Positions 53,994 to 56,608 of a DNA stretch of 64,000 nucleotides are shown one piece after another. How positions within the stretch are numbered: position 1 is the stretch's first letter; each line of letters begins with the position of its first letter. The notes under the pieces were generated by a model. The model worked only from the letters and a program-made list of their open reading frames with translations, had not been told where the DNA came from and ran no database searches. Source of the stretch: Parachlamydiaceae bacterium (GTDB lineage: Bacteria; Chlamydiota; Chlamydiia; Chlamydiales; Parachlamydiaceae); the NCBI GenBank assembly GCA_041691015.1, contig JBEPVN010000002.1:1-64000 (forward strand), in the 5' to 3' direction. A program made the position numbers and the translations under genes.

Positions 53994-55316
53994 TTACAAT
54001 TTAACTAACTCTGCTACCATATCTTCTGCTTCCATGTCTCTTAATTGGTTTTTTAGTCTTCTATTTGAAATGGGATTTTCAATAAGATCTGCAATTTTAT
54101 AAGCTCTTATATAATTTTTGATTCTTCCAAAAGATAAAGAAATTTCATTAAGGAGCTTCGCTACGACACGTTTACCATTAGTAGAATTTGTTTCTATCAT
54201 TTCTATGACTGATAAAGCCTTATCTAATAAGCGCGCCTCCACAAGCTTTAATGAAATCGTTTCATAAAATGTAGTATGACGGCTATCTACCAGGCTAAGA
54301 ATATGATTAAATTGCCAATCCTCGCCATATTTCACAAGCAATGCAATCAGAATACCACAAGAGTGCGGTCTTTCAACTAATGAACTTTCATCAAGGAGAG
54401 CAATATGATTAAAAACCTCCACAACACTGCCAAAACTTTGCACGACAATCTCCTGATCTCTTGAAAGAAGGTCTAATAATGCTTCACTTTTAACTTTAGG
54501 GTTATTAAATTTACGAATGAGTATGCAAGATTGACTTACGGATTGGCAATTGTCTAATAAAAGCGTTCTTAATTCACCTGAAATATCATCGATAAAGTGT
54601 TTTGAAAAAGCTAAATTAAAAGCAGAATTAAAAAAGCCTTTTTCAGCTAATTCAAGAGCTACATAATGAAAAGCATTTTTTGTTTGACAATTGTATTGCA
54701 ATTTTTTTAAAAAATTTATTTTCCAAAAAAAAAGACCTTTTAATTCTAATAAATAGTTAAGCAAAGACATCACTGTCTCATCATAACGATCATTTGATGT
54801 TAGAAATGAAAGCTTGGAAAATTCATATTTTCGCATCGCCATGCAGTGGTGAAAATGATTTTTTAATCTCAATGGATAATTACTAATTTCAATACCTGTT
54901 GAAATCTCCTCTATTTCCAGAAGGCTTAAATCCTTACACTCCATCACTAAAGCACCGATTATGTGATTTATTTCGCATGCAATTTTTGGGATTGTCCGTT
55001 GAGCTACAATGTGATTTGTGTGGGGTAAGTTTTTTGAAGCCTTAAACGTTGGATCAAATAAGGCCTTCGCAAAAAAACTTTCTACTTCTCTTTGTTTTTT
55101 TTCTAGACAGGTCACAGTAAAGTTGATCATATTTGTTAAAGGCATAACAATTGCTTGATCGCGTTTTAAGATGATATCATTCCAAAGTTTGCAGACTTGC
55201 ATCAATACAGTAATTTCATCACCGGAAAACTCATGAATAATTGTTAAAAAAGGTTCGGTAAAATAATCCGGGTAACAGGAATATTTATTCGCCTGCTGAA
55301 TGAATCCTAAGATCAT
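53994..55316 (-). CDS. Eukaryote-like F-box-motif protein, paralog 1 (candidate secreted effector)
   Basis: N-terminal ...LTIIHEFSGDEITVLMQVCKLWNDII... matches the F-box core (L..I...L....L.....VCK.W..I); remainder helical and paralogous to 55397..56608. Confidence 0.6.
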   Translation of the reverse strand: MILGFIQQANKYSCYPDYFTEPFLTIIHEFSGDEITVLMQVCKLWNDIILKRDQAIVMPLTNMINFTVTCLEKKQREVESFFAKALFDPTFKASKNLPHTNHIVAQRTIPKIACEINHIIGALVMECKDLSLLEIEEISTGIEISNYPLRLKNHFHHCMAMRKYEFSKLSFLTSNDRYDETVMSLLNYLLELKGLFFWKINFLKKLQYNCQTKNAFHYVALELAEKGFFNSAFNLAFSKHFIDDISGELRTLLLDNCQSVSQSCILIRKFNNPKVKSEALLDLLSRDQEIVVQSFGSVVEVFNHIALLDESSLVERPHSCGILIALLVKYGEDWQFNHILSLVDSRHTTFYETISLKLVEARLLDKALSVIEMIETNSTNGKRVVAKLLNEISLSFGRIKNYIRAYKIADLIENPISNRRLKNQLRDMEAEDMVAELVKL

Positions 55317-55396
55317 AAAAACTCCTTCAAAAAGTTAAGACATAAGTCTAAAGCTACCTTTAAGAATGACACTATCTGAATTACTTCTATTTATTG

Positions 55397-56608
55397 TCAA
55401 ATATTTTGTTTGAATTGACTTTTAGCAAAATCCCTTGTAGTTGCATTTGGAATCATAGAAGCAACTTCCAGACTTTTTGGCTTGTTTCCAGTTCTAAATA
55501 AATAAGCTACTACAGAAAACAAAAGCTTGGATTGCTCATCTTCAATATTCCGCTTTTGGTGATTTTCGGTTACTCCATTCATAAACTTTTCAATAACCCC
55601 TAACGCTTGCTCAATTAAATCTCCTTTAAGTAACAATTTCACAAGAGGAGATAAAATATCCTTATAAAATTGAGGACCCACTTTTAGTACAATTTCCATC
55701 GCTTTTTTGTCGTATTTATTCTTAAAAAGTTCGTATACCAATAAAACAATGTGTTTCTTATAAGTGTCATAATCTGTTTTATCGAAATTCATAAAACATG
55801 TAAAAATGTTATCAATGCTCCAAAAAGGAATGATTTTATCCAAGGGAGCATGCGGAATAATTTTAAGCAAACCCTTAACTTGTTGTTGTGAATCTGTTAA
55901 GCCTTTAAGAAGTTCACACGCCCTAGAAATTTGGGTTTGTTTCACTAGGTGCTTTGCGATAAATACCCTTGTATACATAGATTTTTCAGATAAATGAATT
56001 GCCAAATCAAAATATCTTTTTTTTGCAAGTTCCAAAATAAGATGAAAATAGATAGCGTAAGGCTTATATTTAGAAGTACTTGAATGAATTTCTTTTTCTA
56101 ATTTACATTTCCACCTTAACTGCCCTGGATATTCCGACACGGTAGAACAAAGAAGATGATGCTCTAAATAACCCTCACATTTTATCTTTTCAATCGCCAT
56201 AAAAAACTGTAAACAAGCTGTCAATTCCATGGGGAATTGATCGTTTGAAAGTATGGACAGTTTTTCCTCTTCGTTCAAGTGGATGATATGTGCGGCTATT
56301 ATTTGTATGATAATATCTAGTTCATCTTCCATACCTAGTAAAGATGTTTGCGCGGTAAATTTAGTTGTAGAAAGGGATTCCATGACTTTTTTCACAGAAT
56401 CTAATTTATTTCTTTCGAAGATAGCAGAGATAAAGAGGATCAGTTTATTCAAAGACGAAGCGATGGATTTTTTTTGGAAAATAATTTTCCCATGCCAAAG
56501 CTTACAGACTTGCATTGCAGCAACAACTTCGTCACCAGAAAGATGTGGAAAGATATGATCAAGTGTATCAATAAGAGGACAAAATTCTAATGATGGAACA
56601 CTTAGCAT
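55397..56608 (-). CDS. Eukaryote-like F-box-motif protein, paralog 2 (candidate secreted effector)
   Basis: N-terminal ...LIDTLDHIFPHLSGDEVVAAMQVCKLWHGKII... F-box-like; shares blocks with paralog 1 (e.g. ALSVIEMI / ALGVIEKF). Confidence 0.6.
   Translation of the reverse strand: MLSVPSLEFCPLIDTLDHIFPHLSGDEVVAAMQVCKLWHGKIIFQKKSIASSLNKLILFISAIFERNKLDSVKKVMESLSTTKFTAQTSLLGMEDELDIIIQIIAAHIIHLNEEEKLSILSNDQFPMELTACLQFFMAIEKIKCEGYLEHHLLCSTVSEYPGQLRWKCKLEKEIHSSTSKYKPYAIYFHLILELAKKRYFDLAIHLSEKSMYTRVFIAKHLVKQTQISRACELLKGLTDSQQQVKGLLKIIPHAPLDKIIPFWSIDNIFTCFMNFDKTDYDTYKKHIVLLVYELFKNKYDKKAMEIVLKVGPQFYKDILSPLVKLLLKGDLIEQALGVIEKFMNGVTENHQKRNIEDEQSKLLFSVVAYLFRTGNKPKSLEVASMIPNATTRDFAKSQFKQNI

Follow-up and report, generated by a model that had tools for sequence, protein, structure and literature searches.

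The closest described systems belong to the same bacterial group, where families of Parachlamydiaceae that join an F-box to TPR or to LRR repeats have been read as effectors (Domman 2014, PMC4209131). For example, the NEX2 family of Neochlamydia has 50 members, mostly with a central DUF294 or OTU domain (PMC4209131). The pair of proteins described here, paralogs A and B, has the architecture already known from the F-box + TPR candidate effectors of Parachlamydiaceae and is an unannotated addition to them (PMC4209131). With NEX2 it shares the bacterial group, an N-terminal F-box-type domain, C-terminal repeats of the TPR class, rapid divergence, and a reading as effectors that would interfere with host ubiquitination (PMC4209131). 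The differences are that the A/B family has only about three members per genome, each of ~400 aa and at fixed syntenic loci, that its PPR-like repeats are not called by Pfam, and that neither DUF294 nor OTU is matched in any of the 12 family members searched with Pfam. Moreover, no long protein carrying the N-terminal block of the family was recovered, being the likeness to NEX2 one of architecture and not of demonstrated direct homology.

A further comparison is provided by Legionella pneumophila AnkB, which binds host Skp1 (PMC7542358, PMC2790608). AnkB also comes from an amoeba-associated intracellular bacterium and carries helical repeats after an F-box of non-canonical type; this F-box scores only 21.6 bits against the reference profile, a divergence similar to that of the A/B family. 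In contrast, the AnkB repeats are ankyrin repeats, the protein is a substrate of the Dot/Icm (type IV) system, its Skp1 binding was established by experiment and its structure is solved, whereas A and B are candidates predicted from their sequences.

In the window, that is, the whole stretch of 64 kb that was analyzed, the original prediction of two ORFs of 440 and 403 aa with a shared motif proved right in its coordinates and in its motif strings, which correspond to residues 25-43 of the 403-aa paralog A (GDEVVAAMQVCKLWHGKII) and to residues 32-49 of the 440-aa paralog B (GDEITVLMQVCKLWNDII). The features of the locus are as follows.

56672..57691, minus strand: upstream neighbor, an ORF of 339 aa, probably 320 aa from M20, which marks the syntenic slot
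55397..56608, minus strand: paralog A (P0001), an ORF of 403 aa with an N-terminal F-box-like module, a helical linker and a C-terminal PPR/TPR-like solenoid
56480..56581, minus strand: F-box-like module of A, residues 10-43, CPLIDTLDHIFPHLSGDEVVAAMQVCKLWHGKII (Pfam, hhalign)
55409..56056, minus strand: C-terminal helical-hairpin repeat domain of A, residues ~185-400 (AlphaFold2 model, profile A3)
55317..55396, minus strand: spacer of 80 bp between both ORFs
53994..55316, minus strand: paralog B (P0003), an ORF of 440 aa with the architecture of paralog A
55167..55268, minus strand: F-box-like module of B, residues 17-50, DYFTEPFLTIIHEFSGDEITVLMQVCKLWNDIIL (Pfam; member of the A2 alignment)
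54027..54674, minus strand: C-terminal helical-repeat domain of B, residues ~215-430 (by homology with residues ~185-400 of A)
53416..53976, plus strand: downstream neighbor of 186 aa, convergent, which bounds the slot on its other side

A and B form a tandem pair of paralogs with homology over their whole length (23% identity over 418 columns, BLASTP E 1e-12), and this full-length homology indicates that the common motif was inherited and excludes a chance match. In either protein the F-box-like module comes after a short leader of just 10-16 residues, and no Sec signal peptide is apparent by inspection at the two N-termini. A scan of the locus for promoters and terminators gave a background level (17 found vs 15.9 expected).

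The N-terminal module is related to the F-box at the level of sequence profiles. A 13-member family profile of this module, which includes paralog B (A2), was compared by hhalign with a profile of eight reference F-boxes, each verified above the Pfam gathering score (A5), giving a probability of 94.6%, a P of 6.8e-8 and a score of 36.7; the alignment spans 34 columns, is correctly registered and includes residues 10-42 of paralog A. The score of the real alignment lies far above those of the controls, which were 8.8 +/- 1.9 for 200 column shuffles (maximum 16.1) and 12.0 for reversed sequences. Also, an hmmsearch of A2 against 177,635 PDB sequences, where only ~50 F-box sequences are detectable by the reference profile, returned F-box proteins as the top three and as eight of the 17 best matches (KDM2A, KDM2B, Dia2, FBXL17, and FBXW12). 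The best of them, KDM2A/FBXL11 and KDM2B/FBXL10, place their 'ECMRVCKTW' and 'VCMRVCRTW' in register with 'AAMQVCKLW', H1 and the H1-H2 loop included; nonetheless, these matches are marginal (E 0.012-0.03), and the eukaryotic proteins keep the downstream LW and continue into LRRs.

In Pfam, the F-box family (PF00646) is matched by 10 of the 13 N-terminal fragments and F-box-like (PF12937, also of clan CL0271) by seven, while no other Pfam family is matched by more than one of them. However, no family member reaches the gathering score of either model, and the matches are confined to roughly positions 9-36 of the 47 in the profile. For F-box-like, with a gathering score of 24.3, paralog A obtains 18.9 bits when searched whole and 22.6 bits when searched as a fragment, and paralog B 13.4 bits (E 0.069, residues 24-50); the best relative, P0010, comes to 20.3 for F-box-like, and its 19.9 for F-box compares with a gathering score of 20.5. 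A scan of A and B against NCBIfam gave no match. Weak scores are normal for divergent F-boxes, since AnkB (5k35_A) and COI1, both established partners of Skp1/ASK1, likewise reach only ~21 bits with the reference F-box profile.

Regarding individual residues, the block I..LSGDE....MQVCK.W...I is the best conserved stretch of the whole family. In the family alignment G25, D26, and V34 are invariant and W38 and L43 nearly so, and conservation extends to V-C-K-x-W, to the hydrophobic residues of H1 and to the G-D-E that caps H2. The LP dipeptide is absent from both A and B, and the downstream C-terminal L-W motif from every family member. A canonical proline at canonical spacing is present only in P0011 (MPKELLRGILSYLSGD) and P0006 (IPNELFNLIFSHLKGD), the proline of group B being three residues closer than canonical and P0002 having none. 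Then, of the F-box core that was originally proposed, the homology at profile level holds, whereas the gathering score, LP and L-W do not support it.

By its homology the module would adopt a three-helix fold and bind Skp1. When the module was modeled on its own with AlphaFold, H2 and H3 came out fused into one long helix; the three-helix F-box fold is not recognized in this model, and no F-box fold was retrieved. This model, together with the subthreshold and partial Pfam matches and the missing LP and L-W, is what would be expected if the block were F-box-derived or merely F-box-like and did not bind Skp1. In this case, A and B would be secreted as helical-repeat scaffolds for host factors, binding them stoichiometrically and with no SCF involved, and the block would serve another purpose, e.g. 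dimerization, localization or chaperone binding; the fast evolution described below would suit any host-interaction protein. We consider this rather unlikely because the family, elsewhere just ~20-25% identical, is best conserved in this block, a pattern that argues for a conserved partner. Moreover, the hydrophobic face of H1 and V-C-K-x-W are the positions conserved in F-boxes, and the similarity goes far beyond the shuffled controls.

The host of these genes belongs to the environmental chlamydiae and is a relative of Parachlamydiaceae, judging from DnaE, whose best matches are MAGs of Chlamydiia and Parachlamydiaceae at 70-78% identity; this bears out the amoeba-symbiont type of chlamydia first supposed. 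All placeable relatives of A and B belong to one chlamydial lineage, and a search of 1.84 billion representative proteins turned up no ortholog in free-living bacteria. The original prediction had named two outcomes that would speak against an F-box effector, one of which, a lack of significant HMM hits together with an unsuitable fold, is formally touched by the subthreshold scores and the unrecognized fold, whereas for the other, orthologs in free-living bacteria, none appeared. In a word-indexed search of 5.8 billion proteins, A and B retrieved only themselves and one homolog, and the profile A2 gave 51 candidates, none of which scored. A profile search of the contigs of GTDB species-representative genomes with the A1 family alignment gave no relative, so neither the source genome nor its close kin figure among the species representatives of GTDB.

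Three ortholog groups, all of them old, make up the family, and they occupy two fixed loci on the chromosome. By best hits and synteny, group A comprises P0001, P0002, and P0010; group B comprises P0003, a partial gene of L001, P0005, P0009, P0014, and P0012. In other genomes A has orthologs distinct from those of B, and both a recent tandem duplication and an ongoing expansion are therefore rejected. The search for a further family copy in the 64-kb window found none, and the expanding effector family once envisaged for the pair gives way to a small and old one.

The evolution of the pair is fast yet constrained. Compared with their L004 orthologs, A and B show ~25% identity, whereas nine flanking genes show 60-85%. 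Against L001, A and B reach dN values of 0.47 and 0.25, respectively, vs 0.06 for a flanking gene, and dN/dS is below 1 for both (A, 0.37; B, 0.13), although dS is at saturation. With these values, gene-wide positive selection is unsupported.

In the window as well as in L004 and L087, housekeeping genes (PheT, NDK, and SNF2 helicase) surround the slot of the pair. The upstream neighbor, with no Pfam match and with 74% identity to its L004 ortholog and 90% to that of L001, sits between PheT and the pair in these same three; in L001 it is also upstream of the pair, being the contig one that ends before any PheT. The downstream neighbor shows 60% identity to its L004 ortholog and 63% to that of L088, and in L001 and L088, too, family members have the immediate neighbors of A and B beside them. 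The pair is placed in a core-genome neighborhood, at a fixed position and outside any expanded or mobile region, an observation that counts against host-targeting.

This setting suits an intrabacterial adaptor of TPR/PPR type, e.g. a secretion chaperone or an assembly factor, whose resemblance to the F-box would be incidental. The conserved immediate neighbors, the small and stable copy number, a secretion signal that is not demonstrable for A and B, and the abundance of TPR-type proteins in bacteria also favor such a role. Even so, we regard it as improbable: the divergence of the pair, relative to that of its neighbors, would be unexpected for a housekeeping adaptor, the family is absent beyond one chlamydial clade, the F-box similarity is statistically strong, and the A slot can go missing, since it was lost or replaced in L087.

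With regard to the other half of the proteins, the AlphaFold2 model of paralog A shows paired helices over residues 182-402, with pLDDT values of 80-94 and with irregular helix lengths. A family profile that includes paralog B (A3), compared with the PDB, matches designer PPR proteins with an E of 1.8e-14 over profile positions 238-405. The top 14 PDB matches of A3 are all PPR, whereas no consensus TPR design appears at E <= 1; a search of the PDB with a single family sequence gave no match. For P-class PPR designs such as dPPR10 and cPPR, the alignment covers ~168 profile columns almost without gaps, corresponding to 4-5 consecutive 35-residue PPR units; the family differs from them in that its members stay below the Pfam PPR threshold and its model helices are irregular. 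On the other hand, the Foldseek matches of the full-length model of A are only TPR-type solenoids (e.g. APC/C subunits, LGN, and KLC1), none of them significant (E > 1e-3). The partial matches in the library of 1.84 billion proteins are multi-repeat proteins that carry TPR and PPR domains together above the gathering score. Matches to MOR2-PAG1_C (in A) and to ATP13 (in P0002) were rejected as family assignments, being below the gathering score and a generic helical-repeat signal.

Taken together, the C-terminal half is a helical-hairpin solenoid of the PPR/TPR class (a TPR-clan alpha-solenoid), with about five PPR/TPR-type hairpins in residues ~185-400. The idea that A and B have no known substrate-recruiting repeat, and hence a possibly new target-binding module, therefore does not stand. 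If the repeats were truly PPR-like, the ligand could be RNA instead of protein. The A3 matches, weak Pfam PPR and ATP13 matches in P0010 and P0002, and the PPR-containing eukaryote-like proteins of some Legionella (PMC7542358) point in this direction. However, a binding of RNA such as host mitochondrial or cytosolic transcripts, by which the proteins would act on host RNA metabolism while the F-box-like head recruited SCF to an RNP or controlled effector turnover, is very improbable, given that the matches are idealized consensus designs with a sole natural PPR-type chain at E <= 1 (mS76 (rPPR1), E 0.017), that the Pfam PPR family is matched by only one of 12 members (E 0.062) with none passing the threshold, that the related long proteins match TPR as well as PPR, and that the structural neighbors are TPR proteins. 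An F-box effector with a genuinely PPR-like recognition module would be a first; it could couple SCF to an RNA or RNP target (amoeba mitochondrial or ribosome-associated RNPs) or mimic host organellar PPR factors, a speculation to which we attach very little weight.

We therefore return to the reading of A and B as candidate host-targeted, SCF-hijacking adaptors of an environmental chlamydia, with an F-box-like head and a helical-repeat body, for which we estimate a probability of about 50%. According to this proposal, the proteins would be delivered to the host cytosol, presumably via the chlamydial type III system, where the F-box-like module would dock on host Skp1. Docking would insert the protein in the host SCF (Skp1-Cul1-Rbx1) ubiquitin ligase, and the concave face of the solenoid would recruit a host protein, which would then be ubiquitinated or have its normal ubiquitination blocked. 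Both the secretion of A and B and the identity of the solenoid ligand are steps that we infer. Paralogs A, B, and C would have different targets.

The practical gain is modest, since the concept has been published before and so has the architecture. In standard annotation the family goes unnoticed, as its Pfam domains are all subthreshold and no source names the proteins, which suggests that the F-box counts of chlamydial genomes are too low. If confirmed, the family would extend the repertoire of environmental chlamydiae, described so far mainly as large, recently expanded families, by a small and ancient group of SCF-hijacking adaptors with fixed synteny. Moreover, with their very different surfaces, the three conserved paralogs would offer a tractable system for finding out which proteins of its host an amoeba symbiont needs to target.

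Paralogs A and B, two adjacent minus-strand ORFs carrying the VCKLW string, both lie where the original prediction placed them:

55397..56608, minus strand, ORF of paralog A, 403 aa
53994..55316, minus strand, ORF of paralog B, 440 aa

The ORFs are separated by 80 bp and encode full-length paralogs, homologous from end to end (23% identity, E 1e-12). Their locus is somewhat AT-rich, its GC content at 54-56 kb being 0.32, compared with about 0.37 across the whole window, which is core genome encoding RpoA, GAPDH, SecY, DnaE, HisRS, a Mip-type FKBP, PheT, NDK and an SNF2 helicase. 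DnaE has its best genomic matches in MAGs that carry the labels Chlamydiia (78%) and Parachlamydiaceae (about 70%). This places the host among the environmental chlamydiae, as a relative of Parachlamydiaceae, in agreement with the guess of an amoeba-associated chlamydia. A 377-aa ORF (15809..16942, minus strand) weakly matches the chlamydial histone-like Hc2 (23.6 bits, gathering score 40), which fits a chlamydial origin. Also, among genes that are otherwise housekeeping, an orphan ORF of 621 aa (37909..39774, plus strand), giving no Pfam match at E <= 0.01, separates the MFS transporter gene from that of HisRS, and the sole match of a 541-aa ORF (46998..48623, minus strand) is a weak C-terminal HTH_3 (19.8 bits, under its gathering score).

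The proposed F-box at the N terminus holds at the level of profile homology. Pfam F-box-like matches where expected in A (18.9 bits), B (13.4) and the homolog P0002 (14.1), and several relatives match F-box-like or Pfam F-box, for example P0010 with 20.3 and 19.9 bits. Among 13 isolated N-terminal fragments, 10 matched F-box and 7 F-box-like, no other Pfam family being matched more than once. However, no family member reaches the Pfam gathering score, and roughly the last quarter of the domain stays unmatched. Low scores are normal for divergent F-boxes, since Legionella AnkB and COI1, both genuine functional F-boxes, score only about 21 bits with the reference profile. All eight F-boxes of that profile were verified by Pfam above the gathering score. 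Aligned to them with hhalign, the profile of the 13 fragments gave a probability of 94.6% (P 6.8e-8) and a score of 36.7, compared with 8.8 +/- 1.9 (maximum 16.1) for 200 column shuffles and 12.0 for reversed sequences. Moreover, a search of the whole PDB sequence set with the fragment profile placed KDM2A, KDM2B and Dia2 at the top by their F-box domains (E 0.012-0.05), and F-box proteins made up 8 of the 17 best matches, in register. Because no more than about 50 F-box sequences in that set are picked up by the reference profile, the enrichment is overwhelming (well below 1e-15 by a rough hypergeometric estimate).

The canonical F-box start is retained in two relatives (MPKELLRGILSYL and IPNELFNLIFSHL), but the LP dipeptide is absent from the window's two proteins and the downstream LW from the whole family. 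AlphaFold2 modeled residues 1-59 as a helix at 12-22 followed by a single helix at 25-57, with no H2-turn-H3 (pLDDT 78). Since this was an isolated fragment with a shallow 12-sequence alignment, and the H2-H3 junction (AAMQVCKLW) is very similar to the one in KDM2A (ECMRVCKTW), whose structure is solved, the three-helix fold is considered unconfirmed rather than negative. F-box superfamily membership is thus supported at the profile level, not proven structurally or functionally. The module is probably homologous to F-boxes, and the odds lean slightly toward its keeping a putative Skp1 binding. A module that no longer binds Skp1, to which the missing LP and LW would point, is less likely.

Word-indexed searches of 5.8 billion proteins returned A and B themselves and one homolog, P0002 (43% identical), and no source names any of the three. 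With a profile of these sequences, HMMER run exhaustively over 1.84 billion cluster representatives gave 67 matches. About nine of them (P0004, P0005, P0006, P0009, P0010, P0011, P0012, P0014 and P0028), of roughly 330-450 aa, align from the N-terminal motif onward. The others are long proteins matched in their C-terminal part alone, several times per protein, and in those scanned, Pfam TPR and PPR repeats exceed the gathering score. Best matches define three ortholog groups, in agreement with synteny:

Group A: P0001 (paralog A), P0002, P0010
Group B: P0003 (paralog B), a partial gene at locus L001, P0005, P0009, P0014, P0012
Group C: P0004 (L003, 1024..2635) and P0006 (L086, 2242..3965), from two sequencing runs, each adjoining a Tmemb_14-family gene on its downstream side

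The run of P0004 (SRR27874556) also holds the window's genome with its pair, and that of P0006 also contains locus L004. The duplication therefore predates the split of these genomes, and no further copy was found in the window. Rather than expanding, as originally proposed, the family is small and stable.

The window and loci L004 and L087 have a common gene order of NDK-GATase-NDK, PheT, a conserved 319-aa protein and then the family member(s), which in L004 are followed by SNF2 helicase and His_Phos_1 genes. The surrounding window genes are:

56672..57691, minus strand, conserved neighbour of the pair, 74-90% identical across genomes; as listed, the ORF runs into the end of PheT
57654..59681, minus strand, PheT, 675 aa; orthologs of 797 aa (L004) and 795 aa (L087)
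59834..61324, plus strand, two NDK genes (143 and 155 aa, each with a strong Pfam NDK match) on either side of a class-I glutamine amidotransferase gene
49946..52738, plus strand, SNF2 helicase ORF, 930 aa, TTG start, as mechanically listed

In L001, the same conserved neighbour is followed downstream by the two paralogs in tandem, with an extra gene between it and A (1018..1689, plus strand) resembling diphthamide synthase 2 / ATP-binding domain (PF01902), which has no counterpart anywhere in the window. In L088, the B-type member adjoins an ortholog of the window's 186-aa ORF. Also, in L087 the B-type gene is the sole family member before the contig end, and the A slot is taken, on the opposite strand, by an unrelated protein of 267 aa that appears to have a signal peptide (7031..7834, minus strand); that slot can thus be replaced. 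The conserved neighbour has no Pfam match; the alignment with its orthologs begins at residue 20 (MRFLKISTLFALCLLLNSC), a stretch that on inspection resembles a lipoprotein signal and includes a lipobox cysteine. The NDK-GATase-NDK trio is kept in L004 and L087, and the duplicated NDKs look unusual. The PheT alignment begins at window residue 35 and L004 residue 150; a tRNA_bind domain at the N terminus of the orthologs appears to be missing from the window protein, probably by real deletion rather than a miscalled start, since only about 150 bp separate its start from the divergent NDK gene. The SNF2 ORF overlaps a convergent 277-aa gene by about 230 bp, and translation probably starts around residue 87 (MKEITYT...), where the alignment with the 852-aa L004 ortholog begins.

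Nine flanking genes of the window share 60-85% identity with their L004 counterparts, against about 25% for A and B each; with L001, the closest relative, the values are 90% for a flanking gene, 66% for B and 43% for A. In this last comparison, Nei-Gojobori dN is 0.06 for the flank, 0.25 for B and 0.47 for A, that is, 4 to 7 times the flanking value in the pair. With dS saturated (1 or more), dN/dS is roughly 0.06, 0.13 and 0.37, respectively, and gene-wide positive selection on A or B finds no support. Both genes are under constraint and so functional. That function could be a purely bacterial one in this core-genome setting, which is improbable given the profile-level F-box.

Regarding the C-terminal half, the original prediction saw no known repeat and a possibly new module, and single-sequence searches likewise found no repeat. 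However, the AlphaFold2 model of A shows a helical-hairpin stack at about residues 185-400 (pLDDT 80-94), and the 12-member family profile matches designer/consensus pentatricopeptide-repeat proteins (E 1.8e-14 to 1e-5), with about 168 columns aligned nearly gap-free to 4-5 consecutive 35-residue PPR units. No TPR design scored with this profile, whereas the structural neighbours of the model, none significant, are TPR-type solenoids (APC/C subunits, LGN, KLC1). Together, these results show a PPR/TPR-class alpha-solenoid, a standard ligand-binding scaffold, rather than a new fold. True PPRs bind RNA, but a protein ligand is the expectation for an F-box adaptor, and RNA binding by the PPR-like repeats is improbable.

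The effector interpretation thus keeps the paralog pair, the chlamydial host and the profile-level F-box, and loses the expansion and the absence of a known repeat. The most likely mechanism, with a probability of about 0.5, is that A and B are putative adaptors that would be secreted by the chlamydia, the degenerate F-box docking on host Skp1 and the solenoid presenting a host target. Large Parachlamydiaceae families in which LRR or TPR repeats accompany an F-box, BTB or RING/U-box domain were read as effectors manipulating host ubiquitination; in NEX2, which is one of these, the F-box is N-terminal and the TPRs are C-terminal, and most members also have a DUF294 or OTU domain (Domman et al. 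2014, PMC4209131). The experimentally proven analogue is Legionella AnkB, which combines an F-box with ankyrin repeats and binds Skp1 (PMC7542358). The A/B family has architecture and setting in common with these systems. In contrast to the Parachlamydiaceae families, it is small (about three members per genome, about 400 aa), lacks DUF294 and OTU domains, carries PPR-like repeats not called by Pfam, and is unannotated at fixed core-genome loci. Earlier publications on this bacterial group already contain both the concept and the architecture, and the A/B family is a tidy, testable candidate.
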